A stretch of 64,000 bases of DNA from IMG/VR virus record IMGVR_UViG_3300014205_000177, positions 113,805-177,804 of that record; one strand, 5' to 3'. Under the pieces are notes generated by a model. The model did not search any database, was not told the DNA's origin, and worked only from the letters and a program-made list of their open reading frames with translations. The position numbers and the translations under genes were made by a program. Below are positions 28,316 to 50,740 of this stretch, piece after piece. This DNA comes from a virus. Taxonomy: Duplodnaviria; Caudoviricetes. Within the stretch, counting starts at the first letter, position 1, and every line of letters starts with the position of its first letter.

Positions 28316-31300
28316 TTAATTCCAGAATCCCCCAGCTAATGATTGAGGTTTGTTAATGTTTTCTAAATAATTATATGCTAAATCATGCCCTATTAACACA
28401 GCACTATATCTATCTTTTCTTTGTTTTTTCTGTGGAGTGTCCCAATGCATCCTTCCAGAACCAGGTGTTAAGGTCACAACAATGTTTTGTATTTCATTCA
28501 TTGTTTCTAATATTTGTTTATACATTAGTTCATCTTCAGTGCTTTCTTCATCATGACAATTTGTTAATAATCCTTTTTCACATGGGAATAATAAAGTACC
28601 ATTTTGTAAAGAAAGTAATAAATTATGATTTGCATTGTGAACCCATTCATATCTTGAAAATTCTACTAATTCAAGCATTCTATTGCCTTTCATAAATCTA
28701 TGTTCTTCAAATCCCCTTTGTAGAATAGGAGTTTCTCCAACAGACAATGTTTTGGAATCTGCCAATAAGTCTCTTATAGTTTGACCCCCTCCTCCTGAAT
28801 CCATTGCAAATTCAGTTATATTATATTCTTTTATAAGATTTCTTATTTCTCTATGCATAACAGGATATGGTTGTTTATTATAGGCTAAAACTCTTTTAAG
28901 TTTTATTAGTCTTTTTGCTATATCAATTGTAAATATGGCAATTGCAAAATTATCACCATTACGAGCTGGGTCTATACCCATTACATTTACAAAACCTGAT
29001 TGTTTAGCAAGTGATTTTTCACATGAAAATGAATAATGTAACTGTGATTTATCGAGAAGTGAACGTTGAAAGAAACCATCTGAGTCAGCAGGAAAATAAT
29101 TTTCATATTCCATTCTAAATTGATAGTCTGGCATATTTAACTTTGCTTCATCAATAGAACTTCTGTTCATAAATCCTTCTGGATAATCATTATGTGTAAA
29201 TGCTACTAAAGCCCTGTTATTATCTTTCATTATATTATAAGGTATTTGAGGACCAGATTCATTACCTCTTAATTCTATACCTTGTAAATCTTCTGGTATT
29301 TCTTGATTATTATTAAATAATTTAATATATCTATCTTGTTTTTCCATAATTGAATCAATATAACTCTTAACAGAAACCCAAAAATGATTATATTGATAAT
29401 AAGAAGTAGAAGAAAGAACTATTTTATTACTATATAATTTTTCTATTTTATTAATTTTACCTAAAGCTAAAAGTTTCTTTTGTTCTTCTATAAATCTTAC
29501 TTGTTCCATTGGGTTTTTAGAAGTTGCCATCATACCACGAATAACTACATCTAAAACTTCCTTATTTACCTGAGCTACTTCGTCTACAATAACAGTAAAA
29601 AAACGAGCACCACGAATTGTTCCCCCGTCACCTATAGGTAACGCTTGAATAACAGAGCCTGGTTTATTGCATACTGATTTAAATTGGAGATAGCACATAT
29701 CTGTCATTTTAGTAGGTTTCTTTTCACAACAATCTCTTAAAAGAAGAGATGTTTCATATATTCTTTCTATTTCAGAAAAAACAAATTTTGACTGACGAAA
29801 AGATGCACCAAATATACCAACTTTTTCGCCAGGAAATAGTAATGCTCTTAAAATTGCAAATACAGCATCAATAAAAGTATTGTGAGATATAAATCCATTG
29901 GATATAAAAGTATGGTCGTCTGGAATATGAACATCGTAAGTATGCTCTTCTGGAAGAATTTCTTTCTCTACAACAATATCAAAAAAGTAATTTTTTTCTG
30001 ATATATCTTTTAACTTTTTCCAATTTTCGCTATCACTGCAATCCTTAGTTAACTCTAAAAATTCATTTAAAAATCTATAAGATGGATTGTATTCTAATAG
30101 GTGAGTATTCTGCAATAACGTTCTTGATTTTCTATCTAGTTTATATTCCACCTTGTTTTTTAAGTAATCATTTTTCACAGAAATAAGAATATCCGATAGG
30201 AAAGGAATCACATCCTTATTGGGATTGAATTTTTTATTCAGCAATAACGTCTCAAGTTTGTCTTGTTTCCTATTACATTTAAATCCTATCTTTTCTGCAA
30301 AAATTTTTGCTGAATTTGAATATATAAACAATCTCCATGAATCTCTTCTTGATTCAATTCCTTTGTAAATATATTTTACCGACTTATAATGGATAGAAGA
30401 AATAATTCCAAAAGATAAAAGAACCACCTGAAGTTGTTTTAATAGTTTTTCAGAACATGATGAAAACTCAACCCCTCTATCAGTAACACTTCCATCGGTA
30501 TCTGCATATCCAGAAATAAATGATGCCAATACTTTTTTATTTGATTGTAGTATTGACTCTGGTATTTCTTTTTCTTTTGATTTTACTTTTTTAAGCTTGT
30601 ATTTACTAAAGAATTCTTTATCTCTATAAGCTCCTCCGAAATTCAAACTAAATTCTATTTTATCCTTTAGTTCTGAAAACTTACAAGCTCCTAGTTTTTT
30701 ATAATTTTCTCTGAAAATATTTATTATGTCTTCATCTGTATTGGTAAATCCAACCCCTCCGGATTTTACAAAGCATCCATCGCCAATTAATGCTCCAATC
30801 ATATATCCTTCTATTTCTGATATCCAGTTAAATTCTCCGCTGAATTCATACTTATCATCCCTATTAATGACTACATAATCTCCAATTTTTATATCATCAT
30901 TTCTTTTCCATGTAATATTTCCATTTTCAAAACATCTAATCATGTGCTTGTCTACTGATTTTATTTCGTAGCCGTGACAAGTTCTTGTTCTGTAAATTTG
31001 TTTTGGTTCGTTTTTGTATGTGTGCGATGTATTTTTGAATCCGTTTTCTCCATACATTTGGATTACACTCTCTTTAAGTCCAAACTCTTCTGATTTGTGA
31101 AGTCCTGCTATTTCATGGAATCCACTATTGAGAAGACACATAGAGTCTCCAACTATGCATTTACCAGAACCACGGGACAAAACCATAATCACATTATTAC
31201 AGTCCCACATTGCTCTAAGTGCAATTCTTTGATGTGGAGCAAGGTCAATACCAAGTAAATCCCTTGCTGCTGCTGCTGGGTCTTCTTTATAAATTCTTAC

Positions 31301-31345
31301 CATCTCCATTAATTGAATATCGTCTTCTGCAAAATTCTGTATCAT
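28316..31345 (-). CDS. terL: Terminase large subunit with intein
   Basis: Walker A SRGSGK(T), Walker B VIVDE, nuclease GIDPAR...MDSGGGG...KDRYSA. Confidence 0.93.
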   Translation of the reverse strand: MIQNFAEDDIQLMEMVRIYKEDPAAAARDLLGIDLAPHQRIALRAMWDCNNVIMVLSRGSGKCIVGDSMCLLNSGFHEIAGLHKSEEFGLKESVIQMYGENGFKNTSHTYKNEPKQIYRTRTCHGYEIKSVDKHMIRCFENGNITWKRNDDIKIGDYVVINRDDKYEFSGEFNWISEIEGYMIGALIGDGCFVKSGGVGFTNTDEDIINIFRENYKKLGACKFSELKDKIEFSLNFGGAYRDKEFFSKYKLKKVKSKEKEIPESILQSNKKVLASFISGYADTDGSVTDRGVEFSSCSEKLLKQLQVVLLSFGIISSIHYKSVKYIYKGIESRRDSWRLFIYSNSAKIFAEKIGFKCNRKQDKLETLLLNKKFNPNKDVIPFLSDILISVKNDYLKNKVEYKLDRKSRTLLQNTHLLEYNPSYRFLNEFLELTKDCSDSENWKKLKDISEKNYFFDIVVEKEILPEEHTYDVHIPDDHTFISNGFISHNTFIDAVFAILRALLFPGEKVGIFGASFRQSKFVFSEIERIYETSLLLRDCCEKKPTKMTDMCYLQFKSVCNKPGSVIQALPIGDGGTIRGARFFTVIVDEVAQVNKEVLDVVIRGMMATSKNPMEQVRFIEEQKKLLALGKINKIEKLYSNKIVLSSTSYYQYNHFWVSVKSYIDSIMEKQDRYIKLFNNNQEIPEDLQGIELRGNESGPQIPYNIMKDNNRALVAFTHNDYPEGFMNRSSIDEAKLNMPDYQFRMEYENYFPADSDGFFQRSLLDKSQLHYSFSCEKSLAKQSGFVNVMGIDPARNGDNFAIAIFTIDIAKRLIKLKRVLAYNKQPYPVMHREIRNLIKEYNITEFAMDSGGGGQTIRDLLADSKTLSVGETPILQRGFEEHRFMKGNRMLELVEFSRYEWVHNANHNLLLSLQNGTLLFPCEKGLLTNCHDEESTEDELMYKQILETMNEIQNIVVTLTPGSGRMHWDTPQKKQRKDRYSAVLIGHDLAYNYLENINKPQSLAGGFWN
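29879..31159 (-). mobile_element. 427 aa intein with LAGLIDADG homing endonuclease in TerL
   Basis: Starts CIVGDS, ends NGFISHN, followed by Thr; GALIGDG and SGYADTDG motifs. Confidence 0.93.
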
Positions 31346-38324: not shown

Positions 38325-38417
38325 GCTAGTGTGGCTGAGTGGTCTAAAGCAGCGCACCTGTAATGCGCCGAGTTCATATCAATGGCTCCGTGGGTTCAAA
38401 TCCTACCACTAGCTCCA
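38325..38417 (+). tRNA. tRNA-Thr(UGU), atypical (C33, long variable arm)
   Basis: Acceptor GCTAGTG/CACTAGC, stem GCGCA/TGCGC, loop CCTGTAA, CCA; a Tyr reading needs a broken stem. Confidence 0.7.
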
Positions 38418-38497
38418 GTCTTCCGGCTTCGTAAAAACGAATATAATAACATAGCAATATGTGAAGCGGATATTCCCAGCCGGTTTTATTTTAGAAT

Positions 38498-38575
38498 GGG
38501 GCAATAGCTCAGTTGGCTTAGAGCATCTCGCTTGCACCGAGAAGGTCCAGGGTTCAATTCCCTGTTGTTCCACCA
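38498..38575 (+). tRNA. tRNA-Ala(UGC)
   Basis: Cloverleaf, loop CTTGCAC, G3:U70, CCA. Confidence 0.93.
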
Positions 38576-38583
38576 TTTTACGT

Positions 38584-38661
38584 TGGCTAGTAGCTCAGTT
38601 GGTAGTAAGCGTTCGCCTGTTAAGCGAAAGGTCGCACGTTCGAACCGTGCCTAGCCAGCCA
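38584..38661 (+). tRNA. tRNA-Asn(GUU)
   Basis: Loop CTGTTAA, CCA. Confidence 0.92.
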
Positions 38662-38709
38662 ATTTTATTAACAATGTGTGTTAATATTATTCTAGTTTAA
38701 AATAATTTT

Positions 38710-38795
38710 TGCAGGGATAAGTCTCGGAAGACTGGTAAGGCTCATAACCTTATGCGGAAACGCTGAGTGGGTTCGACTCTCCACCCCTGCTACCA
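38710..38795 (+). tRNA. tRNA-Met(CAU), initiator-like, extra variable hairpin
   Basis: Loop CTCATAA; 1:72 mismatch; GCGGAAACGC V-arm. Confidence 0.75.
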
Positions 38796-38863
38796 TTTCT
38801 CTACCAGAGGTAGGGATATTATAAAGGGTTATCGCTGTCCCCGTCTGACGAAACAGCGAACGT

Positions 38864-38939
38864 GGCTCGTATGGATAATGGCTATCCACAAGTATCATAA
38901 ACTTGTTTAAGGTGGGTTCGATTCCCCCACGAGCTACCA
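38864..38939 (+). tRNA. tRNA with CAU anticodon (Met or Ile2)
   Basis: Stem CAAGT/ACTTG, loop ATCATAA, CCA. Confidence 0.75.
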
Positions 38940-38948
38940 ATTTAAAAC

Positions 38949-39024
38949 GGGGATGTAGCTCAATTAGGAGAGCATCGGTCTGTCGAACCGAAGGTCGTGG
39001 GGGCAGAACCCATCATCCTCGCCA
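38949..39024 (+). tRNA. tRNA-Asp(GUC)
   Basis: Loop CTGTCGA, G73, CCA. Confidence 0.9.
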
Positions 39025-39032
39025 TTTTATAT

Positions 39033-39109
39033 GCTCGGTTAGCTCAATTGGCTAGAGCACTTGGTTTACACCCAAGTTGTTACAGATTCGAGTTCTGTAC
39101 CGAGTACCA
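39033..39109 (+). tRNA. tRNA-Val(UAC)
   Basis: Loop TTTACAC, CCA. Confidence 0.92.
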
Positions 39110-39118
39110 GTTTTATAT

Positions 39119-39208
39119 GGGGAGGTAGCTCAGAGGCAGAGCGTCGGGCTAGGTGGTGAAAACCACCGAATCTGAAGGTCGCTGGTTCGAATCCAGCCTT
39201 CCCCACCA
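39119..39208 (+). ncRNA. tRNA-like RNA with a hairpin inserted in the anticodon loop
   Basis: Intact acceptor, D and T arms and CCA; loop reads CTA-GGTGGT-GAAA-ACCACC-GAA. Confidence 0.8.
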
Positions 39209-39213
39209 GTTTC

Positions 39214-39287
39214 GTTGCGAGATAATATAATTTTTAGTACCCCATTGTGGATGGGAAATGTTGGTGAAAATCCAACTCTCGCAACCA
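39214..39287 (+). tRNA. tRNA-His(GUG), degenerate
   Basis: G-1, loop TTGTGGA; D-loop lacks GG; T-loop atypical. Confidence 0.55.
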
Positions 39288-39312
39288 TTTTTTAAAAAAA
39301 TAGAAAAGTAAT

Positions 39313-39340
39313 TTGTTTTTGAAGTAAATTATGCTATATT
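39313..39340 (+). promoter_or_regulatory. Internal promoter in tRNA array 1
   Basis: TTGTTT-N16-TATATT with TGC. Confidence 0.6.
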
Positions 39341-39431
39341 TTAAAGTATAAGAAAGTTGTTGGATAATTACCAACTGAACTCTGAGGTTATGGGAATATC
39401 AGAGAGAGATTAACAAATAACCCGTACATAT

Positions 39432-39505
39432 CAGAGCGTGAGATAATGGTAGTCGTCCTTCCTTGGAAGAAGGGGGTGGTCGTTCGAATCGACCCGCTCT
39501 GACCA
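39432..39505 (+). tRNA. tRNA-Pro(UGG)
   Basis: C1:G72, loop CTTGGAA, CCA. Confidence 0.9.
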
Positions 39506-39555
39506 TTTTAAATTTAACCATAGTGGTTTAAATAAAAAATAACATAGGAAAAGTT

Positions 39556-39762
39556 ATGGAAGAAGATTTAATTCCTGAAATTTGGGAAAACGGAAAGGGG
39601 AGAACAAAACCCTTTGTAAAAAGTAAGAAAAACAATTATGAAGAACCCAAAAAAAGATTTGGGATAATTGGTAAGAAAAAAGTAAAAGAAAATAGAGAAC
39701 TTCAAGATATAGATGAAGTAGAAGATAAAATAAGTTCTTCTATACTTAGTAAAATTAAATAA
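39556..39762 (+). CDS. Small Lys-rich hypothetical protein
   Basis: 68 aa; AGGA RBS. Confidence 0.6.
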   Translation: MEEDLIPEIWENGKGRTKPFVKSKKNNYEEPKKRFGIIGKKKVKENRELQDIDEVEDKISSSILSKIK

Positions 39763-39767
39763 TATGT

Positions 39768-39843
39768 GTCCGGTTCTTCTAGTTGGACAGGATAAGGGAC
39801 CTTCACTCCCTCGACACGGGTTCGAATCCCGTACCGGATACCA
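39768..39843 (+). tRNA. tRNA-Glu(UUC), C33
   Basis: Stem AGGGA/TCCCT, loop CCTTCAC, CCA. Confidence 0.85.
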
Positions 39844-39846
39844 TAA

Positions 39847-39922
39847 AGCCCTGAAGTGTAACGGCTGCACACTTGTCTTTGACACAAGTAGACTTATGGT
39901 TCAACTCCATGCAGGGCTGCCA
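39847..39922 (+). tRNA. tRNA-Gln(UUG)
   Basis: Loop CTTTGAC, G73, CCA. Confidence 0.88.
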
Positions 39923-39930
39923 GTTTTCGA

Positions 39931-40005
39931 GTTCCCTTAATTCAGAGGAAGAAATTATCGGTCCTAACGATAAAGTCGCTGGTTCAAGTCCAGCAGGGAA
40001 CGCCA
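39931..40005 (+). tRNA. tRNA-Arg(CCU)
   Basis: Stem TATCG/CGATA, loop GTCCTAA, CCA. Confidence 0.82.
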
Positions 40006-40019
40006 GTTTTGTTTTATGT

Positions 40020-40052
40020 GTGCCAGTAGCTGAGAGGATAGAGCAGTGGTTT
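40020..40052 (+). pseudogene. tRNA 5'-half remnant
   Basis: GTGCCAG-TAGCTGAGAGGATAGAGCA-GTGGTTT stops at the anticodon loop, just before the endonuclease gene. Confidence 0.6.
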
Positions 40053-40123
40053 AAATTAAATATTTAAGATTGACGTGTGTTCGATTCAATGTTTCGATGG
40101 TATTATATAAAAAGGAGTTTTAT

Positions 40124-41102
40124 ATGAAAGCCATTGAAATAGATTGGAAATTAGTTCAGGAATACCATAATAATGAGCACTGCTTGAGTGATGTCATGAA
40201 AAATTTTAAGGTTTCAAGAGCATCCATAGATACAGCGGTAAAACATGGATGCTTTGTTAAAAAATATTTTAAACAAGAACACACTGAGGAAACAAAGAAG
40301 GCAATATCTGAAAAAAGGAAAAAATGGTTGGCAGACAATCCAGATAAACATGTATGGAAAAGGAAGGGAAAATTCAAATCTGAACCATGCGAAGTATTAA
40401 AGAAAAAAACTTGAAGAAAATGGAGTTAGTTTTTATCCAGAATTTTCACCAATAGAAAGCCATTCATTCTCTTTAGATATAGCTTTTCCAAAAGATAAGT
40501 TTGGCATAGAAATAAATGGAAACCAGCACTATGAAAGAGACGGTAGACTAAAGGATTATTATCAGAAACGACATGATTTAATCGTTGCAGATGGTTGGGA
40601 ACTATTGGAAATACCTTGTGCTATGGTTTGGAACAAGGAGTTTATTGATGGTTTAATAGAATCACTTAAAACTAAGGTCTGCGGTTTTGAGTATAAAGAA
40701 CAAGTGGAAGAATATAATAAAAAGAAAAGAGAAAAGTATATTTGCCCGACTTGTGACAATAGAAAGAGCAAAAACTCGATGCTTTGTAGAAAGTGTTCTT
40801 TTAAGCCGAAAGTAAAAAAGCAAGTAGTCAGAATTTTTGTAAATAAAAACCATATGTGTCCGAATTGTAAAAACGCTAAAGATGCAAAAGCGGTTTTATG
40901 TAAGGAATGCTTTAGTTTGTCAAAGAGGAAAGTTGAAAGACCAAATAAGGAAGAGTTGGAAAAATTGGTCAAAGAGTTATCGATGACTAAGATAGGCAAG
41001 ATGTTCGGAGTTAGCGACAATGCCGTAAAAAAATGGTGTAAAATTTATGAAATAGAATTAGGAGACAGACGAGGGTACTGGGCAAAGATTTATGCAAGGT
41101 GA
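40124..41102 (+). pseudogene. Frameshifted Vsr/DUF559-like homing endonuclease (NUMOD3-like, nuclease, Zn fingers, HTH)
   Basis: Removing one A from the A7 run at 40403-40409 joins both ORFs through LDIAFP...IEINGNQH...GWELL. Confidence 0.75.
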
Positions 41103-41110
41103 TTTAACAT

Positions 41111-41185
41111 GGTCTCATAGCTTAACGGATAAAGTTCGTGTCTTCTAAACACGCCATTCGGGTTCAATTCCCGATGAGACCTCCA
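41111..41185 (+). tRNA. tRNA-Arg(UCU)
   Basis: Stem CGTGT/ACACG, loop CTTCTAA, CCA. Confidence 0.88.
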
Positions 41186-41206
41186 ATTTTAAAAAAGGAA
41201 TTTTTT

Positions 41207-41464
41207 ATGAAAAGAGCTAGACCTATTTACTCACTAGGGCAGTATTATAGAAACAGGGGCACTCATAAACGAGAAGAAGCAATAAGCGAAGACGAAGAAC
41301 ATAGTCCATTAACTAGAGCCAAGAGAGAATCAAATTTACCTGACTCTTGGGATACAAAAAAGATTTGCAGACCTAAGACATGGAAGAGGAGATGCAAGAA
41401 AGCAAAACAGTGGATGAAACATTTTATGACAGATTTAGAAAAGAAATTTATAAGAGGAGAATAA
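41207..41464 (+). CDS. Basic hypothetical protein
   Basis: ATG 41207 with AAGGA RBS; RAKR..LPDSWD...WK motif. Confidence 0.7.
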   Translation: MKRARPIYSLGQYYRNRGTHKREEAISEDEEHSPLTRAKRESNLPDSWDTKKICRPKTWKRRCKKAKQWMKHFMTDLEKKFIRGE

Positions 41465-41467
41465 ACG

Positions 41468-41572
41468 ATGAGTGGAAAAGGATGTAAGAGAAGACCTCAA
41501 CAGATAAGCGAAGAAAAAATGCAAAGCAATTGGGAAAAAGCATTTAACAAAGGAAATAAAAAGAAAAAATGA
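41468..41572 (+). CDS. Small phage protein (MSGKGCKRRP...NWEKAF)
   Basis: 34 aa; GAGGAG RBS; ATGA overlap with the next gene. Confidence 0.65.
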   Translation: MSGKGCKRRPQQISEEKMQSNWEKAFNKGNKKKK

Positions 41573-42156
41573 GTGAAGTATTGGTTTTAAACAAGCTATG
41601 GCAACCAGTTAAAGTTATTAACGTATGGGATGCAATTTGCAAAGTATATCAAGATAAAGCTTCTTTTTTAGATGCTAATTATGTTATGCATAATTGGGAA
41701 TCTTGGGTTATATCATGGAAAGATGCAGAAATTCATGCAAAAGATATGATACATGGTTCATCTTGTTCTATTAGAAAACCAACTGTAATTGTTTTAAAAA
41801 ACTACAGTGGGTATGTTTTTAAAAAACCAAAGATGAGTAGGCGTAACATTTACTTAAGGGATGCAAACCAGTGCCAATATTGTGGTATAACATACGAAAC
41901 AAAGAAACTAAATATAGACCATATTATACCTAAATCTCATGGGGGAAGAACTCAATGGACTAATGTAGTAGTTTCATGTATAAAATGTAATAGTTTTAAA
42001 GCAGATAGAACTCCTGAACAGGCAGGAATGAAACTTTTAAGAAAGCCAAAAGCTCCTACCTGGAAAGATGTTAACATGGAAGCTTTTCAAAGAAATTATT
42101 CTAATTGGCACGGTCTGTTAAATGACATGTACTGGAATGTTACTTTAGAAAAATAG
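41569..42156 (+). CDS. HNH endonuclease (McrA-like)
   Basis: VLVLN...RD..CQYCG...DHIIPKSHGG...N...C..CN..K. Confidence 0.9.
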   Translation: MSEVLVLNKLWQPVKVINVWDAICKVYQDKASFLDANYVMHNWESWVISWKDAEIHAKDMIHGSSCSIRKPTVIVLKNYSGYVFKKPKMSRRNIYLRDANQCQYCGITYETKKLNIDHIIPKSHGGRTQWTNVVVSCIKCNSFKADRTPEQAGMKLLRKPKAPTWKDVNMEAFQRNYSNWHGLLNDMYWNVTLEK

Positions 42157-42235
42157 AATTATAAGATTGACAAATAAAAAAAAGATGCTATACTTAATAA
42201 GTGTAGCATTTTTTATATATAAATAAGGAGATAAA

Positions 42236-42622
42236 ATGAGTGAAAAAATTGTAATGGGTAAAATGTTTTCTATTGAAAATAAAAACAAAAAAACCGGTGA
42301 AAATGAAAAATACATAGCCGTTTATGTAGAAGACGAAAGCGGAAATGAAGAAACCGAAAGGTGCTTACTATTTACGGAAATAGAGCTTTCCGACATGGAA
42401 AAAGTTGTACTTCCATTTGTTAAGAATACAATGAAAAAAGGAAGAATTTATTCTGTTATTATAGACAAAAAAGAAACAAATCTTTTAAAAGTAGAAACAG
42501 AACGTAATGGAAATATTATTTTTAGGGTTTCTAATTCTCAACTTAAATCGGCAGAAGAAAGGGTTAAAAGAAATCCAGAAGATGTTGAAAAGAAAGATTT
42601 TATAACTGATTTACTTGACTAA
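42236..42622 (+). CDS. Hypothetical protein
   Basis: 128 aa; AAGGAG RBS; promoter upstream. Confidence 0.75.
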   Translation: MSEKIVMGKMFSIENKNKKTGENEKYIAVYVEDESGNEETERCLLFTEIELSDMEKVVLPFVKNTMKKGRIYSVIIDKKETNLLKVETERNGNIIFRVSNSQLKSAEERVKRNPEDVEKKDFITDLLD

Positions 42623-42631
42623 CAAGGAAAT

Positions 42632-42865
42632 ATGATGAAATTAAAAATAAAATGTCCAGAATGTAAAAGGGAACATCTTGTCACTATATCAAATGAACAA
42701 CCTATTATGGAAATTAAAAAGATAAAATGTTTATCTTGTAGTATAATTATAAAATATAGAATAGGAATAAAAAAAGAAAATACCAGTGATAGTTCTTCTA
42801 AACTTTTTGATAGTATGGGAATGTTTGGAGATGTTTTTAAAAATATTATGGGGAGTAAAAGATGA
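42632..42865 (+). CDS. Zn-ribbon protein
   Basis: CPEC...CLSC. Confidence 0.65.
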   Translation: MMKLKIKCPECKREHLVTISNEQPIMEIKKIKCLSCSIIIKYRIGIKKENTSDSSSKLFDSMGMFGDVFKNIMGSKR

Positions 42866-43188
42866 TAGGTACAATAGAAGTGGTAAATAAATATACATAT
42901 GAAGGTGATTATATAGATATAATGAGAGGAACTCCACTTGGTAATCCATATATAGTTTCTGATTCAATGAGCAGAGAACAATCAGTTTTAAATTTTTATA
43001 AATATTTCAGAAAAGAATTTTTTAAAAAAACAGATGTATATAATGCAATAATGGAGATAGTTGAAAAGGTTAAGTCTGGAGAAAATGTAAAAATTAAATG
43101 TTGTTGTAAACCAAAATTATGCCATGGCGATATTATAAAAATTGCAATAGAAAGTATTTTAGAAAAACAAATTAGAAATAATACTTGA
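42862..43188 (+). CDS. DUF4326-like protein
   Basis: IMRGTPLGNPY...CCCKPKLCHGDII. Confidence 0.8.
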   Translation: MIGTIEVVNKYTYEGDYIDIMRGTPLGNPYIVSDSMSREQSVLNFYKYFRKEFFKKTDVYNAIMEIVEKVKSGENVKIKCCCKPKLCHGDIIKIAIESILEKQIRNNT

Positions 43189-43343
43189 TTTTTAAAAATA
43201 TTATGCTATAGTTAATATTATAAAATTTCTTATTATGAGAAATTAAAAAAAAGAGGTAAAAAATGATGTAGAATAATAAATCTCCATAACGTGTTTCTTT
43301 GTTTTAATGATTTTAATAATAATAATAAACAAAGGAGAGTATA
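43185..43343 (+). promoter_or_regulatory. Promoter, amber-interrupted leader and RBS-sequestering hairpin
   Basis: TTGATT-N16-TATAGT; GAGGT RBS; ATG ATG TAG AAT AAT AAA TCT CCA TAA at 43263-43289; 43294-43304 pairs with 43327-43337. Confidence 0.65.
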
Positions 43344-43718
43344 ATGAATACTTTAAGAAACACGAACGAAGAAGTAATAGATTTGAAGAAAGAGGAATAT
43401 AAGAAGAATATTAAAAGGATGAAGGCTAACGTTAAACTGGTGTCAAATAACATAAAAGAAATGAAAGAAGAATTAAAGACTAAGCAAAAAAAAGGTGATT
43501 ATAAAAGTTGGTCTTTAATGAGTGATTTAAATTCTTATAAAAATGATGTCAGAAATACACATATAGCTTATGCTATGGCAAAAGGGAGAGTCTACCAAAA
43601 AATTGAGTCAAAAGTTAGAGATAACAATGAACCAAACTGGTGGGCAATAAAGGCAAATATAGAAAATTTCTTCGGAAAGAAATTTGAAATTGTTGACTTC
43701 AAGGTAAACTTTCTATGA
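43344..43718 (+). CDS. Hypothetical protein upstream of Pth2-like gene
   Basis: 124 aa; RNTHIAYAMAKGRVYQKIE motif. Confidence 0.75.
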   Translation: MNTLRNTNEEVIDLKKEEYKKNIKRMKANVKLVSNNIKEMKEELKTKQKKGDYKSWSLMSDLNSYKNDVRNTHIAYAMAKGRVYQKIESKVRDNNEPNWWAIKANIENFFGKKFEIVDFKVNFL

Positions 43719-44017
43719 AAAAGGTATTTATAATAACCAGGAAAGACCTTGAAAATGGAGCAAGAATAGTTCAGTCTGTTCATTCATTCCATGAGTTGGC
43801 AAGAAAAAATGAAGAAATATTGAATCAGGTATATAATACAATATGTTACAAAATAGAAGACGAACTATCATTAAAAGAAGTTTCTGAGAGGATAGCAAGT
43901 AATCTAAACGAAAAAGAATATGCATGGTTCAGAGAAACAGATTACAATAATCAATTGACCTCTTTTGCAGTCTTTACAAACAAGAAAGAGCTGTTTAAAG
44001 GTTTAAGATTGGCGTAA
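43715..44017 (+). CDS. Peptidyl-tRNA hydrolase 2-like protein
   Basis: IITRKDL..GARIVQSVH...FRETDYNNQLTSFA...LF..LRL pattern. Confidence 0.7.
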   Translation: MKKVFIITRKDLENGARIVQSVHSFHELARKNEEILNQVYNTICYKIEDELSLKEVSERIASNLNEKEYAWFRETDYNNQLTSFAVFTNKKELFKGLRLA

Positions 44018-44021
44018 TAAA

Positions 44022-44051
44022 TAGGGAGGAGTAAATCCTCCCATTATTTTA
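44022..44051 (+). terminator. Intrinsic terminator
   Basis: GGGAGGA/TCCTCCC stem with T-rich tail. Confidence 0.65.
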
Positions 44052-44067
44052 TAAAAAATGGAGAAAA

Positions 44068-44538
44068 ATGAGCAATAAAGAAAATTATTTTTTAGACCTA
44101 GCACTTAGAAGTGCTCATCAAGGTTCCTGTACAAGAAGAAACTACGGAGCAATTATAGTAAACGAGAAAAAGCATATAGTAGCAACTGGTTATACAGGAA
44201 ATGTATCAGGAGAAGAGCACTGTAATAGTCTTGGAATTTGCTGGAGAAAAGAGAATAATATTCCAAGTGGAACCTCCTACGAACGCTGTAAATCAATACA
44301 TGCCGAACAGAATGCGTTAATTCAAGCCGGTAAAGAATCTTATGGTTCTGTAATATATATTGCCGGATATGATGTAGAAACAGGAAGGGAAATAGCTGGT
44401 ATACCTTGCTTTATTTGTGCAAAACTAATTGTTAATGCTGGAATATCTTCTATTATATATAGAGATACATCTTTAGTGTTCAGGAAGGGTCCAGTTGCCC
44501 ATTATCGTGAACTAGAAAGAAAAATATTTGGAAAATAA
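44068..44538 (+). CDS. dCMP deaminase (ComEB-like)
   Basis: HAEQNA and PCFIC zinc motifs. Confidence 0.88.
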   Translation: MSNKENYFLDLALRSAHQGSCTRRNYGAIIVNEKKHIVATGYTGNVSGEEHCNSLGICWRKENNIPSGTSYERCKSIHAEQNALIQAGKESYGSVIYIAGYDVETGREIAGIPCFICAKLIVNAGISSIIYRDTSLVFRKGPVAHYRELERKIFGK

Positions 44539-44550
44539 TAGTTTATGGTG

Positions 44551-44578
44551 TTGTTTTTTTATAAAGTAATGCTATAAT
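44551..44578 (+). promoter_or_regulatory. Promoter of tRNA array 2
   Basis: TTGTTT-N16-TATAAT with TGC. Confidence 0.75.
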
Positions 44579-44718
44579 ATAATCAACAGCCACCGATATA
44601 GAAATATACGGTAATGTATAGCTCATCTGCCAGGTGTAGAGTGAGTTTCCGAGAATGACGATGACAAAATTCAAAGTTGTTCTCCGTTTTTAAAAAAAAA
44701 TAAAAGGAATTATATTAA

Positions 44719-44790
44719 ATGATGAACGTTTTTAAAAAGATTAGTTTTGGTCGTTGGGGTTTTAAACCTCACGTCCGTCTATTCTTGTAA
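44719..44790 (+). CDS. Attenuator leader peptide 2 (MMNVFKKISFGRWGFKPHVRLFL)
   Basis: AAGGA RBS; codons match all 8 array 2 tRNAs. Confidence 0.82.
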   Translation: MMNVFKKISFGRWGFKPHVRLFL

Positions 44791-44816
44791 CGTTTATCGT
44801 TAGTTGTTGGAGAAGT

Positions 44817-44850
44817 AGGCGGACTAGAAATAGTTCGCCTTTTTGTTTTT
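44817..44850 (+). terminator. Attenuator terminator 2
   Basis: AGGCGGACTA-GAAA-TAGTTCGCCT plus TTTTGTTTTT; alternative pairing with 44773-44785. Confidence 0.85.
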
Positions 44851-44852
44851 AT

Positions 44853-44928
44853 GGGTTGATAGCAAACGTGGTCAATGCATACCGTTGAAGCCGGTACTAC
44901 TTCGGTTCAATTCCGAATCAACCCACCA
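44853..44928 (+). tRNA. tRNA-Phe(GAA)
   Basis: Loop TTGAAGC, CCA. Confidence 0.88.
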
Positions 44929-44938
44929 GTTTATGTGA

Positions 44939-45029
44939 GCAAGGTTGTCTTAGCGGCTTGAGAAACCGACTTTTAATCGGTCAGAGGGTAATGCCTCGTA
45001 GGTGGGTTCGACTCCCACACCTTGCACCA
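44939..45029 (+). tRNA. tRNA-Lys(UUU) with long variable arm
   Basis: Stem ACCGA/TCGGT, loop CTTTTAA, V-arm GAGG/CCTC, CCA. Confidence 0.82.
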
Positions 45030-45040
45030 TTTTATAGTAT

Positions 45041-45125
45041 GCGTCGATGTCATAGCGGTTGTGAGGCTGACTCTTAATCAGTGAGAGAAATCTCTAGGTG
45101 GGTTCAACTCCCACTCGGCGCACCA
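45041..45125 (+). tRNA. tRNA-Lys(CUU) with long variable arm
   Basis: Loop CTCTTAA, V-arm GAGA-GAAA-TCTC, CCA. Confidence 0.82.
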
Positions 45126-45137
45126 AGTTTTTTGTGT

Positions 45138-45211
45138 ATGTCTATAGTTCAATAGTAGAACGGGAGTCTCCAAAACTCTTGACGAGGGGGCAGTACCTTC
45201 TAGACATGCCA
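45138..45211 (+). tRNA. tRNA-Trp(CCA)
   Basis: Loop CTCCAAA, G73, CCA. Confidence 0.88.
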
Positions 45212-45220
45212 GTTTTATAT

Positions 45221-45296
45221 GCGCTGTTAGCTCAGTTGGAAGAGCCCAAAAATACGAATTTTGAGGTCGGGGATTCGAATTCTCCACGGCGCACCA
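45221..45296 (+). tRNA. tRNA-Arg(ACG)
   Basis: Stem CAAAA/TTTTG, loop ATACGAA, CCA. Confidence 0.88.
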
Positions 45297-45303
45297 TTTT
45301 CAT

Positions 45304-45379
45304 TGGCGTATCATATAACGGTCAATTATGTGAGACTGATATTCTCATCACCAAGGTTCAACTCCTTGTACGCCAACCA
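45304..45379 (+). tRNA. tRNA-Ile(GAU)
   Basis: Loop CTGATAT, CCA. Confidence 0.87.
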
Positions 45380-45388
45380 GTTATACAT

Positions 45389-45464
45389 ATTCGGTTAGTT
45401 TAGCGGCTAGAACAATACGTTGACATCGTATAAATCATGGGTTCGATTCCCATACCGAATACCA
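45389..45464 (+). tRNA. tRNA-Val(GAC)
   Basis: Loop TTGACAT, CCA. Confidence 0.88.
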
Positions 45465-45472
45465 GTTTTCAT

Positions 45473-45546
45473 GCGAATATAGTACAGTAGCAGTATTTGA
45501 CGTTGCCAACGTTAGGACGAGGGTGCAATTCCCTCTATTCGCACCA
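45473..45546 (+). tRNA. tRNA-Gly(GCC)
   Basis: Loop TTGCCAA, CCA. Confidence 0.85.
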
Positions 45547-45610
45547 TTTTTTGCAACGAAAAATATAATCTTTATGTTGCAAAACCAAGATATTGTGCTA
45601 TACTATCAAT

Positions 45611-45734
45611 GGCGGTTTAGAGAAAGGTTCATCGCCCTCTAACAAGGGAGGGATTGCAGTAGATTCACCGTGGAAGAAAAGTACATCAGTGAAGGAACCA
45701 ATCCAATGTTTTTTCGATAAAACAATCGCCACCA
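45611..45734 (+). ncRNA. Structured RNA with tRNA-like ends
   Basis: GGCGGTT/AATCGCC-A-CCA; T-arm-like GTTTT-TTCGAT-AAAAC; promoter just upstream. Confidence 0.55.
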
Positions 45735-45792
45735 TTTGACATTTATAAAAATCATGCTATTGTACCTCAACAAACTAAAAAGGAGATATGCA

Positions 45793-46191
45793 ATGTGTAT
45801 CAAAATCAAGGCGATGGAAAATGGAGTAATGATTCAAAGCAGAGAAGAATATGAAGATATAATGGATATTCTATTGGATGCAGGTCTTCGGACAGTGAGT
45901 GGAAAATATTTTGGAGAATGTGACTGGTTTAATGAAACCGGAACCGAAACAGTTATAGATTTGAGAAATCTGGAGTCTATTGCATATGGTGAATATCAGT
46001 ATTTTATTGATAATGATATCCCGGTTTGTAATTTCCAGGATTTTCTTACAGAACAGGGTTTAACACCAAACGGATGCATTAGCGGTGAACAACAGATATT
46101 TATGCGTAGGGCAAAGTTGAAATGTCCAAAAATGAAAAAGAAAGAAATCAGAAGACTTGCAAAGGCAATCGTGAGGGAGATGAACAAATGA
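45793..46191 (+). CDS. Hypothetical protein
   Basis: AGGAG RBS; promoter upstream. Confidence 0.7.
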   Translation: MCIKIKAMENGVMIQSREEYEDIMDILLDAGLRTVSGKYFGECDWFNETGTETVIDLRNLESIAYGEYQYFIDNDIPVCNFQDFLTEQGLTPNGCISGEQQIFMRRAKLKCPKMKKKEIRRLAKAIVREMNK

Positions 46192-46769
46192 AAGCAAGAA
46201 CTAAAAAAGAAGTAGTGCAAATAGGATTATTAGTTGATGAGAGTGGTTCTATGTATAGCCTCTCTGGTGATACAATCGGTACGGTTAATGGTTTCATTAA
46301 AGACCAGAAAAAAGTAAAAGGAGAAGCAGAAATAACAATAGCTTCATTTAATGATAACTATAAACTCATTAAAGATAGAGAAGATATCAAAAATATTGAA
46401 GAAATTACCAGCGAAGATTATTCTCCATCTGGAATGACGGCATTATATGATTCTATTATGAAAATAATTTCTTCCATAGAAGAGACAAAAGCTAAAAAAG
46501 CGATAATCGCTATTATTACAGATGGAATGGAAAACTCAAGTATTGAATATAAAGATTCAAGTGTAATTAAAGAAAAAATACAGCAGAAACAAAAAGACGG
46601 GTGGCAGATATTATTTCTAGCTGCAAATATTGACGAAAAGGCAGTGGGTGCAAGTTTCGGAATAAATGCAATGTACACTCAGGCGTTTACTCCTACAGCA
46701 GATGGCGTAATAGGTGCTATGTCATATACATCGAGATGCGTTAGTGATTACAGGGGCAATAATGATTAA
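46188..46769 (+). CDS. vWA-domain protein
   Basis: MIDAS DESGSM, GMTALYD, ITDGMENSS. Confidence 0.88.
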   Translation: MKARTKKEVVQIGLLVDESGSMYSLSGDTIGTVNGFIKDQKKVKGEAEITIASFNDNYKLIKDREDIKNIEEITSEDYSPSGMTALYDSIMKIISSIEETKAKKAIIAIITDGMENSSIEYKDSSVIKEKIQQKQKDGWQILFLAANIDEKAVGASFGINAMYTQAFTPTADGVIGAMSYTSRCVSDYRGNND

Positions 46770-46865
46770 AATAGGGATAACACAGAGAGAGGTGATGCGG
46801 CTTTAGATTTAAAATGGTTGTGTTTATTGGAAATAAATAAAAATCAAAAAAAGTTTTAAAACTAT

Positions 46866-46893
46866 TTGTTTTTATCGAAAGTAATGCTATAAT
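46866..46893 (+). promoter_or_regulatory. Promoter of tRNA array 3
   Basis: TTGTTT-N16-TATAAT with TGC. Confidence 0.75.
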
Positions 46894-46932
46894 ATAGATG
46901 TGTAAGATAAATAAATTAAAAAGGAAATCATC

Positions 46933-47007
46933 ATGAACAAGTTGTTATCAAGTCATTCACTATCGCTCTCATCCTATATAGGATGCGAGATAGGTCTGCT
47001 TTGGTAA
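46933..47007 (+). CDS. Attenuator leader peptide 3 (MNKLLSSHSLSLSSYIGCEIGLLW)
   Basis: AAGGA RBS; Ser/Leu-rich codons match array 3 tRNAs. Confidence 0.82.
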   Translation: MNKLLSSHSLSLSSYIGCEIGLLW

Positions 47008-47034
47008 TACTTTTTAGATATTCCCAGTTTTTAA

Positions 47035-47071
47035 AAAGAGCAGACCGTAAAAAGTCTGCTCTTTGTTTTTG
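47035..47071 (+). terminator. Attenuator terminator 3
   Basis: AAAGAGCAGAC/GTCTGCTCTTT plus GTTTTT; alternative pairing with 46993-47002. Confidence 0.85.
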
Positions 47072-47080
47072 TTGTGATAT

Positions 47081-47155
47081 GCTCCAGTAACATAATGGCT
47101 AGTGTAGGTGACTTCCACTCACCCAATGAGAGTTCGATTCTCTCCTGGAGTACCA
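47081..47155 (+). tRNA. tRNA-Gly(UCC)
   Basis: Loop CTTCCAC, CCA. Confidence 0.88.
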
Positions 47156-47163
47156 GTTTATAT

Positions 47164-47261
47164 GGAAGAATAAGCCGAAAGATTCTGGGTAGCGGCAACG
47201 GTCTTGAAAACCGAAGGCTCTAAAACAGGGCGTGTGGGTTCGAATCCTACTTCTTCCGCCA
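47164..47261 (+). tRNA. tRNA-Ser(UGA)
   Basis: Loop CTTGAAA, long V-arm, G73. Confidence 0.88.
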
Positions 47262-47303
47262 GTTTAGACTAGAAATAGTTGATGTTGTTTGAAAATTATA
47301 TAT

Positions 47304-47376
47304 GTCCCGTGAGCCAGATGGAGAGGCGATTGTCTGCAAAACAATGGAAACAGTTCGATTCTGTAACGGGACTCCA
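47304..47376 (+). tRNA. tRNA-Cys(GCA)
   Basis: Loop CTGCAAA, U73, CCA. Confidence 0.87.
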
Positions 47377-47384
47377 GTTTATAA

Positions 47385-47476
47385 GGAGATGTAATCCTAA
47401 AGGCAAGGAAAGAGTTTGCTAAACTCTTAGTAACCGAGAAATCGGCGTGGGTTTTCAAGACACCCCATCTCCGCCA
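47385..47476 (+). tRNA. tRNA-Ser(GCU)
   Basis: Loop TTGCTAA, long V-arm, G73. Confidence 0.82.
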
Positions 47477-47550
47477 GTTTTAAGTAGACAACTCACTATG
47501 TCATAAAAGTACCAAGAGGGCGACATAGTAATCAGAATAGAATATTATTT

Positions 47551-47626
47551 CCGCAGGTAGCTCAGGGGTCAGAGCTCTATTCTTATAAAGTAGCTGTCAG
47601 TGGTTCAATTCCACTCCTGCGGACCA
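47551..47626 (+). tRNA. tRNA-Ile(UAU)
   Basis: Stem CTATT/AGTAG, loop CTTATAA, CCA. Confidence 0.85.
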
Positions 47627-47637
47627 TTTTAAAATAA

Positions 47638-47725
47638 GGGTGTTGTCCCCCACGGAAGTCTGTAAAACTTTTGACATATGTAAGTGGGGTGGCGTCAAGT
47701 GGTTCAATTCCACCAATACCCACCA
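47638..47725 (+). tRNA. tRNA-Tyr(GUA), non-canonical fold
   Basis: Loop CTGTAAA; 8-bp acceptor, 4-bp T stem; no normal D-arm. Confidence 0.65.
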
Positions 47726-47752
47726 TTTTTAGGCGACTTAGCGGTCGTCTTT

Positions 47753-47883
47753 GAGCGCACAACGCCTAGTAATCTAAGTGGCATCCAAAGTTGCTCTTGG
47801 TGCTTAGAGGGCTTGTATTTCGAGTGTGGTTTGCAACAGCCCACATGAGAAGCATATAGGTATTGCCGGAAGATTGTGTGCTC
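47753..47883 (+). ncRNA. Unidentified structured RNA
   Basis: Closing stem GAGCGCACAA/TTGTGTGCTC enclosing two hairpins. Confidence 0.5.
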
Positions 47884-47893
47884 TAAATTTTAT

Positions 47894-47984
47894 GGAAGTT
47901 TGCCGGAGATGGATTATCGGCTCTCATTGGAAATGAGATGGTCACTTAAGTGGCACGAAGATTCGAATTCTTCAACTTCCGCCA
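47894..47984 (+). tRNA. tRNA-Ser(GGA)
   Basis: Loop TTGGAAA, long V-arm, G73. Confidence 0.88.
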
Positions 47985-47992
47985 GTTTTAAT

Positions 47993-48125
47993 GGGGGTGA
48001 AATTTATTCGATTATGGTTTCGCAATGTGGTAGCTTGGAAGCAATGGTAGCAAATGCACTTGAAAACTCTACCATCCACACTTAGGAAACCGTAAGACCT
48101 GGGTTAAATCCCAGCACTTCCACCA
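47993..48125 (+). ncRNA. Minimal tmRNA-like RNA, 133 nt
   Basis: GGGGGTG/CACTTCC-A-CCA with G3:U70; ATTCGA D-loop analogue; helix TTATGGTTTC/GAAACCGTAA; GAC then T-arm. Confidence 0.7.
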
Positions 48126-48130
48126 GTTTT

Positions 48131-48305
48131 GGTAAACGTGAAGACGAAGATTGAGGAATGGTTTGTTTTGGACGAACGCCCCGTTATCCATGGGGAGAAG
48201 ACATAAAACTCAGCACCAAGTCATTTCGTGGTGGCGTTGCCAGAGAAGTTATGGGTACGATTGTGGCTCGTATTTAGACCGGAGCATTACCGGTACGTCA
48301 CCCCA
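48131..48305 (+). ncRNA. Structured RNA with tRNA-like 3' end
   Basis: GGTAAACGT/ACGTCACC-CCA; ACCGG-N7-CCGGT; several internal hairpins. Confidence 0.45.
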
Positions 48306-48315
48306 ATTTTTATGT

Positions 48316-48392
48316 GCGCCTATAGGAGAATTGGCATATCCGTCTGGTTTAGGCCCAGAATTTTCTCGGTTCGAGTCCGAGTAGGCGTACCA
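48316..48392 (+). tRNA. tRNA-Leu(UAG), short variable loop
   Basis: Loop TTTAGGC, CCA. Confidence 0.85.
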
Positions 48393-48447
48393 CATTTTTT
48401 AGACTAGAAATAGTCGACGTTGTTTGAAAAAGTATATATGAAAATAT

Positions 48448-48724
48448 CCCCATGTGGCGGAATGGCAGACGCAACGGACTTATTAATTTGAGCCTTATAT
48501 TGGAAACTTTATAAGTGGACATGGCTAATTCGGTGAATCCTTTAATATGGTAACGCCGAGCTATCGAAAGAGAGTGTAGAGACTTTACACCATGTGCCTA
48601 AGTCTATGAAGATATGGCAAAGACAAAGTCCAGACCACGCAAGAAGAGAGTAGTGAAAACTATAGTGGTACGAAAATTCGTCGCCCGTTAGGGCGTGAGG
48701 GTTCGACTCCCTCCTTGGGGACCA
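48448..48724 (+). tRNA. tRNA-Leu(UAA) split by a group I intron
   Basis: Exons 48448-48481 and 48673-48724 rebuild loop CT-TAA-AA. Confidence 0.9.
48482..48672 (+). mobile_element. Group I intron (trnL-UAA type), 191 nt
   Basis: Inserted U^AA; P AATTCGGTGAA, Q AACGCCGAGC, R GTAGAGACT, S AAGACAAAGTCC; terminal G. Confidence 0.9.
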
Positions 48725-48802
48725 AATATTTATGTTATAGTTATTTTTTTGTGTTATTTGCATCTGCCATGTTATATTATAATAAAACAGCGGGAGTAAA
48801 TA

Positions 48803-49717
48803 ATGAAATATACAAAAGAGATGCTAGAAGAGGCAATTAAAAATAATGTTAGTTTTGCGGGAGTTCTAAAAAGTTTTGGATTACATCCGTCCGGTGGTAG
48901 TCATAGACTAATAAAATCAAAAGCATTAAGTTTTGGAATAAGTACGGAACATTTTCTTGGAAAGGCATCAAATTGCGGAAGTAGGTACAAAGGTGGGTTA
49001 GAAAAAATAAGTTTTTCAGATGTGTTAGTGTACGATAGAAGAAATGGAATGAGGGAGAGTGCCTCTAAACTAAAAAGGTCTATGCTGGAAAGCGGGATAG
49101 AATATAAGTGCGAAAAGTGTAACAATGATGGTGTCTGGATGGATGGTTTTGTGTCTTTGGAGGTTCATCACAAAAATGGAGATACTTTTGACAACACAAA
49201 AGAAAACCTTGTATTTATATGTCCCAATTGTCACAGTCAAACTGACAACTTTCGTGGAAGAAATAAGGTTGAAAAAGATATTCAACAAATAAGAACAGAA
49301 GAGGAGGTTGTTGCAGCACTTCTAAAGAGTAAAAATATAAGACAATCACTTATAGAACTAAATTTGGCTCCATACGGAGGTAATTACGATAGGATTAAAA
49401 GAGTAATGATAAAAAAGGATATTGAGTTCAATAAAAAAGAAAAGAAAACTGCAACATGTCCGTCGTGCGGAAATAAAAAAGATTACTCCAGCGCAGAATG
49501 TAGAAAGTGCGCAAGTATAAAGAGAGGTTTGGCAGAAAGAAAAGTTGAACGTCCATCAAAAGAAGGCTTGGAGAAAATGATTGCTGAACTTCCAATGACA
49601 AAGATTGGAAAAATGTTTGGAGTAAGTGATAATACTATTAGAAAATGGTGTAAGAATTACGGAATAGAATTAGGTAATAGATTAGGATACTGGACGAAGA
49701 TAAAATATAGCAAATAA
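48803..49717 (+). CDS. HNH homing endonuclease with C-terminal Zn finger and HTH
   Basis: CEKC...LEVHHKNGD..DNTKENL...CPNCHSQT. Confidence 0.9.
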   Translation: MKYTKEMLEEAIKNNVSFAGVLKSFGLHPSGGSHRLIKSKALSFGISTEHFLGKASNCGSRYKGGLEKISFSDVLVYDRRNGMRESASKLKRSMLESGIEYKCEKCNNDGVWMDGFVSLEVHHKNGDTFDNTKENLVFICPNCHSQTDNFRGRNKVEKDIQQIRTEEEVVAALLKSKNIRQSLIELNLAPYGGNYDRIKRVMIKKDIEFNKKEKKTATCPSCGNKKDYSSAECRKCASIKRGLAERKVERPSKEGLEKMIAELPMTKIGKMFGVSDNTIRKWCKNYGIELGNRLGYWTKIKYSK

Positions 49718-49721
49718 ATAT

Positions 49722-49798
49722 GGTCTCGTAACCGAATTGGCATAGGTATCGTGCCCAAACCACGAGTTTTATGGGTTCGACCCCCATCGAGACCACCA
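49722..49798 (+). tRNA. tRNA-Leu(CAA), C33, short variable loop
   Basis: Stem TCGTG/CACGA, loop CCCAAAC, CCA. Confidence 0.78.
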
Positions 49799-50616: not shown

Positions 50617-50740
50617 TCTTATTTTACGTCAACCATGTGTTGAATGTAGTGAACCTGTCATGGTACAGGTTTTGAGTTGGGTGGGGTTCTCGCATACCTC
50701 ACCCATTTTTTTTACAATTTATGCGAAAGGAAAAAGGAAA

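Follow-up and report, generated by a model that had tools for sequence, protein, structure and literature searches.

A conserved phage tRNA gene with a GAAA-capped hairpin in its anticodon, possibly a mini-intron of an arginine tRNA

Group I introns occur in the anticodon loops of bacterial and phage tRNAs, namely tRNA-Leu (UAA), tRNA-Arg (CCU) and tRNA-fMet. They are longer than 200 nt and contain a P1-P9 catalytic core. The protein-spliced introns of archaeal and eukaryal tRNAs depend on a bulge-helix-bulge, an endonuclease of the EndA/TSEN family and the ligase RtcB; in line with the textbooks, we know of no such intron in bacteria. Anticodon loops can also be broken and repaired. In T4, the cleavage of the anticodon loop by PrrC is repaired by Pnkp and Rnl1, and repair by RtcB is also known. 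Another type of interruption was described for the Lak megaphages, whose tRNAs carry non-ribozyme 'enigmatic introns' that are conserved across cohorts, as given in Table S6 of Devoto et al. 2019 (PMC6784885). Among these, the insert of the A1 tRNA-Tyr measures 93 nt and is called immediately behind the anticodon (37-129), and one Lak insert is itself tRNA-like (PMC6784885). No paper describing a hairpin insert of 11-15 nt in a tRNA was found in our literature search.

The window analysed here is a stretch of 64,000 nt, corresponding to positions 113805-177804 of contig C2 (177.8 kb, 30% GC), which was binned with a bacterial MAG (4.0 Mb, 33% GC). The contig is a tailed phage. Its large terminase (window positions 28316-31345) contains a LAGLIDADG intein, and the contig also has a capsid module and a portal-like gene. 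The phage is remote from cultured phages, the nearest portal protein being 25% identical, and it belongs to an undescribed group different from Lak. The gene of interest sits within an array of roughly 30 tRNA genes. ARAGORN called 27 tRNA genes on the contig, and more were added by Rfam, including Asp- and Trp-like ones, an assignment that is our own reading of the anticodon loops. All of the inspected phage tRNA genes encode CCA, in which the host tRNAs differ.

The gene spans 90 nt (39119-39208, + strand) and was detected by ARAGORN, by the Rfam tRNA model and by a covariance model (R1). Run with no intron option, ARAGORN reported it as 'tRNA-???' with an abnormal anticodon. RF00005 covered 39119-39205 over the full model with 54.6 bits (gathering score 29), and the window copy scored 106 bits against model R1. 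The acceptor stem (7 bp, GGGGAGG/CUUCCCC) and the D arm (GCUC-AGAGGCA-GAGC) were read from the sequence, and they are accompanied by the variable loop AGGUC, the T arm GCUGG-UUCGAAU-CCAGC, a discriminator A and an encoded CCA. The gene has the features of a canonical tRNA cloverleaf, but not the 7-nt loop with three unpaired anticodon bases. Instead, the 5-bp anticodon stem (UCGGG/UCUGA, 39144-39148 with 39171-39175) closes a loop of 22 nt (39149-39170, CUA-GGUGGU-GAAA-ACCACC-GAA). Within this loop lies a 16-nt palindromic hairpin (39152-39167, +), made of GGUGGU (39152-39157), GAAA (39158-39161) and ACCACC (39162-39167).

In the extended anticodon arm (39144-39175, +), the 5-bp stem is thus followed by a 3x3 internal loop (CUA opposite GAA), on which the GAAA-capped hairpin of 6 bp sits. 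Its predicted fold reached -13.4 kcal/mol (z = -3.5), and none of 200 shuffled sequences was as good. RNAalifold recovered both the cloverleaf and the hairpin unguided from three orthologues. The initial annotation, made from the sequence without database searches, had described a tRNA body with a GAAA-capped 6-bp hairpin at the anticodon, which could not decode as written. This observation was confirmed by the Rfam score, the folding energy and the ARAGORN call. Its remark that the insert is too short to self-splice is also reasonable, since no Rfam family other than tRNA matched at the gathering score. A group I intron was ruled out by the 15-nt size of the insert, and a laxer Rfam scan gave nothing intron-like over the gene.

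Other simple explanations for the hairpin were also considered. The palindrome GGUGGU-GAAA-ACCACC exists as a single copy in the 4.0-Mb assembly and is therefore not a dispersed palindromic repeat. An intrinsic terminator was ruled out, because the hairpin is not followed by a U run. An assembly artefact was excluded too, since four independent assemblies contain the gene. The nearest paralogue gave no clue to the identity of the tRNA, as none was clear (best 76%). The hairpin is flanked by the unpaired triplets CUA (39149-39151) and GAA (39168-39170), the first of which is complementary to the amber codon UAG. The phage has an amber-reading tRNA(CUA) at C2:18254, and the match is probably a coincidence.

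The large terminase has many metagenomic relatives on contigs of 140-180 kb, and three further copies of the split tRNA gene were recovered, which represent two more phage lineages. One copy is at 3667-3757 (- strand) of a 144.7-kb ENA contig (L025) whose TerL is 71% identical. The other two are on Logan contigs, at 1057-1146 of L117 and at 344-433 of L118 (from a second run), and were located through a small ORF downstream of the split tRNA. The gene order is the same in the three lineages, with tRNA-Val(UAC) followed by the split tRNA and then by tRNA-Pro(UGG). The window and L117 copies are identical at 89 of 90 positions (99%), differing in one T-loop base, while five flanking tRNA pairs are 58-88% identical. 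Between the window and L025 the gene is 77% identical, compared with 56-80% for eight neighbouring tRNA pairs by the same measure. Judged from these alignments, the split tRNA appears to be the best-conserved gene of the array.

The stem changes in the L025 copy all preserve pairing. Three acceptor pairs (2:71, 4:69 and 5:68) are changed on both sides and one (6:67) on one side with the pairing kept, and C28 of the pair 28:42 is replaced by U, which is still paired. The hairpin, which is identical with 6 bp in the window and L117/L118, is GGUG-GAAA-CACC in L025; 2 nt are gone from each strand, and a perfect stem of 4 bp remains in an anticodon loop of 18 nt. The CUA/GAA flanks and the GAAA loop are unchanged. 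Apart from one substitution and this 2-bp shortening, the extended arm of L025 does not differ from that of the window. In contrast to the nearly invariant arm and insert, L025 shows changes in its acceptor stem, in its discriminator (A versus U) and in two loops; its T loop is UGCAAAU (G55) and its D loop is without GG. This copy scored 40.6 bits against the Rfam tRNA model. From these patterns, the split tRNA gene is under purifying selection, which is strongest on the anticodon arm and its insert. The prospect of a unique insert on a body decaying in relatives, which had been named as a refutation of the initial annotation, was contradicted, as insert and body are both conserved with compensatory changes.

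The ORF that led to the Logan copies encodes a lysine-rich protein of 68 aa (39556-39762, +) and lies about 350 nt downstream of the split tRNA. In a profile search of 1.8 billion representatives, its strong homologues were confined to L025 and L117/L118, with one further weak match (E 1e-5) in a protein of 5302 aa. In the more distant relatives, its place is taken by a gene of 64 aa that is unrelated to it. The co-distribution of the ORF and the split tRNA may reflect simple kinship.

Further copies and intron-less alleles were searched for widely. No relatives of the region were found among 50,697 phage records by megablast and blastn, and the blastn matches to the split tRNA in these records were ordinary T-arm similarity. 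Three matches overlapping the insert region (H1, H2 and H6) were inspected, and no insert-bearing tRNA was seen. Exact and gapped pattern scans did not find the insert in IMG/VR, nor did the pattern of an intron-less allele match there. Two insert-pattern matches in JGI metagenomes and one in GTDB genomes were without a tRNA body and were rejected as chance. When 166 host-family genomes were searched at the DNA level and 151 genomes of the order with the covariance model, only the window's own copy turned up. Eighty IMG/VR loci around TerL relatives had no R1 match at E <= 1e-6, and the GTDB TerL scan found nothing. In three contigs with TerL 59-64% identical (L026, L028 and L030), the gene was absent from the 10 kb examined. 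Four independent contigs of related phages (L027, L029, L033 and L116) terminate just short of the array, which is preceded by a cluster of small genes, and their ends lie 150-600 nt upstream of this cluster; this common stop suggests that either the genome physically ends there or assembly repeatedly breaks at that point. For the Pth2-like neighbour protein, no homologues were found at word level.

The array has other unusual members. Tyrosine is the one amino acid that the phage tRNA set (window positions 38325-49798) does not cover, although TAT is used at 40 per 1000 codons. Thr-UGU, Lys-UUU and Lys-CUU have long variable arms, and both phage Leu tRNAs have short ones, so that these tRNAs are class-swapped. 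An 80-nt gene at 38711-38790 was read as Met-CAU with a long arm, and its top Rfam match was tRNA-Sec (30.9 bits). A long, atypical tRNA-shaped gene of 94 nt (47164-47257, +) lies between Gly-UCC and Cys-GCA and gave a tRNA-Sec-like match of 37.2 bits, below the gathering score. A 175-nt repeat with 72% identity (40915-41089 and 49527-49701) is located inside two zinc-ribbon/HNH-type ORFs within the tRNA arrays. An HNH_2 gene has been inserted between tRNA-Asp and tRNA-Val of L117. In L025, a remnant of a tRNA 5' half (about 3765-3800, - strand; acceptor strand and D arm, then unrelated sequence) is placed between tRNA-Val and the split-tRNA copy. Mobile nucleases remodel the tRNA arrays while the split tRNA stays intact.

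Two further tRNA-shaped elements were observed in the window. The first is at 39216-39287 (+) and matched the Rfam tRNA model with 34.9 bits. It has a 7-bp acceptor stem, a T arm and A-CCA; where the D arm would be there is an AU-rich stretch, and the anticodon arm is replaced by a short hairpin whose predicted loop has 3-5 nt. L117 keeps it at 1154-1227, where the changes in the acceptor and T stems are compensatory, and L025 lacks it. This gene is conserved and non-canonical, and the locus therefore does hold non-decoding tRNA-shaped RNAs. The second, a Y-RNA-like element (50520-50592, +), has a tRNA-like core that aligns to positions 5-66 of the Rfam tRNA model with 53.9 bits, and the flanks of this core, GUUGGG...CCCAAC, are able to pair. 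It is directly upstream of a gene for a TROVE/Ro60-like protein of 544 aa (50660-52294, +; phrog_850; PDB TROVE proteins, E 9e-12). Together with the RtcB of the phage, this arrangement recalls the bacterial rsr-Y RNA-rtcB association.

When the intron option of ARAGORN (-i) was used, the gene was called as tRNA-Arg(acg), i(34,15) in the window and i(38,11) in L025. The candidate intervening sequence in the window is 15 nt long (39152-39166, +) and follows A34; its excision would leave CU-ACG-AA. An equally valid excision of 15 nt (39151-39165) would leave CU-CCG-AA. Loss of 15 nt, or of 11 nt in L025, gives a standard 7-nt loop with C32, U33, A37 and A38. With the one-base ambiguity of the boundary, the anticodon would be either ACG or CCG, each of which is an arginine anticodon, and C35 and G36 would be present in either product. 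No other interrupted tRNA was called by ARAGORN -i on the contig or in relatives.

Arginine identity is set mainly by the anticodon, and A20 in the D loop is an identity element of E. coli ArgRS. Position 20 of the split tRNA is C (D loop AGAGGCA), while Arg(CCU) and Arg(ACG) of the phage read as A20. The discriminator is G, U or A among the phage tRNA-Arg genes, and the A-to-U change between the orthologues is therefore compatible with arginine identity. The arginine set of the phage consists of ACG, UCU and CCU, which leaves CCG as the sole common bacterial arginine anticodon that is missing. An uninterrupted Arg(ACG) gene exists at 45221, and CGG is the rarest arginine codon of the phage (0.29 per 1000). 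Tyrosine, the only amino acid without a phage tRNA, was ruled out as the identity, as GUA cannot be obtained by a single excision. A deaminase at 44068-44538 was considered as a phage TadA acting on A34 and was also ruled out, because it is ComEB/dCMP-deaminase-like.

RtcB joins 2',3'-cyclic-phosphate or 3'-phosphate ends to 5'-OH ends. An intein-containing RtcB is encoded on the phage contig outside the window (C2:35699-37879; PF01139, 325 bits; NCBIfam 'intein-containing RtcB') and is the single copy in the bin. A DRB0094-type ATP-dependent RNA ligase is located 2 kb upstream of it (C2:32454-33524, also outside the window). Large phages often carry RtcB and Rnl genes, which serve tRNA repair, and the presence of these ligases is therefore not specific to splicing. 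The ORFs around the two ligases gave no informative family. For the cutting step, tRNA_int_endo (PF01974, EndA/TSEN family) had no match in the 93%-complete bin including the phage contig, and the archaeal controls did match. No archease was found. Inspection of the fold showed that the 3-nt strands CUA and GAA face each other in a symmetric internal loop, which is not a bulge-helix-bulge. A 7-nt loop requires that one of the cuts falls 1-2 nt within the stem, which would leave a 5' overhang of 1-3 nt. RNase III acts on stems of about one helical turn or more, and its cuts leave a 2-nt 3' overhang. Processing by RNase III, whose single gene is the host's (on C7), fits neither the 4-6 bp stem nor the 5' overhang, which is the opposite geometry. 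The suggestion of a substrate for cut-and-ligate maturation, also made in the initial annotation, gained support from the canonical CU-NNN-AA loop after excision and from the presence of RtcB and a second ligase; for the cutting step, no endonuclease was found.

Our best reading, which we hold tentatively, is that the gene is a functional arginine-type phage tRNA with a cut-and-ligate mini-intron of 15 nt here and 11 nt in the relative. It is favoured because excision leaves a canonical loop, because the tRNA body is good, evolves by compensatory changes and has CCA, because the phage has its own ligases, and because Lak offers a precedent. In the mechanism that we infer, the gene would be transcribed as part of tRNA array 1, and RNase P and 3' trimming would give a 90-nt precursor unable to decode. 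A putative endonuclease would then cleave both sides of the hairpin, which it may grip by the GNRA-capped stem together with the conserved internal loop CUA/GAA. The halves would be sealed by the phage RtcB or by the second phage ligase. The predicted product is a tRNA of 75 nt with the loop CU-ACG-AA or CU-CCG-AA, and the expected splice junction is GGGCU joined to CCGAAUCU or GGGCUA joined to CGAAUCU. Several observations count against this reading. Neither an endonuclease candidate nor an intron-less allele was found, and the split is at 33/34 or 34/35 and not at the canonical 37/38. The decoding demand is small, given the rarity of CGG and the uninterrupted Arg(ACG) gene. Position 20 is C, and L025 has G55 and a D loop without GG. 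The broader claim, that protein-catalysed tRNA splicing takes place in phage-infected bacteria, with a nuclease recognising a minimal GNRA-capped hairpin within a 3x3 internal loop and excising 11-15 nt inside the anticodon, and the phage RtcB rejoining the halves, is more doubtful.

The insert is conserved at least as well as the exons, which also fits an RNA that works through its arm. The close rival of the mini-intron is accordingly that the hairpin is never removed and that the 90-nt RNA is a non-decoding tRNA look-alike acting through the GNRA-capped arm, an explanation that we regard as possible and somewhat less probable. Such an RNA could be a decoy, an inhibitor or an adaptor for a protein that binds anticodon arms (for example a host anticodon nuclease, a modification enzyme or a synthetase), and the tRNA body would supply RNase P processing, the CCA end and stability. 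This possibility is favoured by the strong conservation of the arm and insert, which are nearly invariant and change less than any other segment, and by an insert that does not differ between the window and L117 although the identity of neighbouring tRNAs is 58-88%. It is also in agreement with the second non-decoding tRNA-shaped gene 7 nt downstream (39216-39287), with the Y-RNA-like tRNA mimic beside the TROVE protein in the same phage, with the failure to find a splicing nuclease or an intron-less allele, and with the negligible codon demand for Arg-CCG. However, C32, U33, A37 and A38 are kept in the loop, although descent from a real tRNA could explain them, and the perfect acceptor stem, its compensatory changes and the encoded CCA suggest the need for an aminoacyl end. 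No partner protein was identified, and our literature search found no precedent for a hairpin-blocked tRNA decoy.

Another idea is an amino-acid carrier outside translation, in which an anticodon-independent synthetase would charge the RNA and the amino acid would be given to a non-ribosomal process. The intact acceptor stem, discriminator position and CCA of all copies, with the anticodon blocked, agree with this idea. The role of amino-acid donor, raised in the initial annotation, was nevertheless weakened and appears very unlikely, because the orthologues share no identity element by which a synthetase could act independently of the anticodon: their discriminator is A or U, the pairs 2:71, 4:69 and 5:68 differ, and the gene is without G3:U70 (Ala), a long variable arm (Ser, Leu, Tyr) or an extra G -1 (His). 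We give equally little credence to a dead tRNA gene that has not yet decayed, for example a scar left behind when a mobile intron was lost or a homing endonuclease acted. HNH homing-endonuclease genes do populate the arrays, and a tRNA 5'-half remnant adjoins the L025 copy. But this is the most conserved gene of the array across three lineages, where a neutral scar should outpace its working neighbours in divergence; compensatory changes occur in two helices, and the indel in the hairpin keeps its pairing. The mini-intron remains our best reading, with the look-alike as its close rival.

If the mini-intron is real, it would be the smallest tRNA intron described and would provide a physiological splicing substrate for a bacterial or phage RtcB. 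Before maturation, the phage could then keep the tRNA inactive or out of reach of host anticodon nucleases. If the RNA is left unspliced, it would be a conserved tRNA mimic with a blocked anticodon, pointing to a new phage tactic against proteins that handle anticodon arms. Either outcome bears on how large phages manage their tRNAs against tRNA-targeting host defences, and the insert of 11-15 nt with its simple, well-defined shape makes a handy test substrate.

We know of no experimental demonstration of a mini protein-spliced intron or of such a non-decoding look-alike in bacteria, and each of the known systems shares only some features with this locus. The repair of anticodon-loop breaks resembles it in the cut-and-reseal chemistry and in a phage that brings its own RNA ligases. 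Repair, however, follows one cut and restores the sequence, whereas two cuts and the loss of 15 nt are needed here. Group I introns share the insertion site in the anticodon loop of a bacterial-type tRNA. The protein-spliced introns of archaea and eukaryotes are likewise short inserts in the anticodon region, and an RtcB-family ligase is available here, encoded by the phage. They differ in that the 3-nt strands at this locus are opposite each other and not offset by 4 bp, that the bin has no EndA-family gene and no archease was found, and that the position is 33/34 or 34/35 and not 37/38. Excision of the insert is predicted here, as it is for the Lak cases. Compared with the Lak introns, the present insert is only 11-15 nt long, is a bare GNRA hairpin and splits the anticodon itself, and it is confined to a single tRNA lineage, in a phage of 178 kb. 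Both are anticodon-loop inserts in phage tRNAs that are too small or unstructured for a group I ribozyme and whose removal restores a normal tRNA, both are conserved between related phages (often identical in Lak), and both occur with bacterial hosts without a known tRNA-splicing endonuclease.
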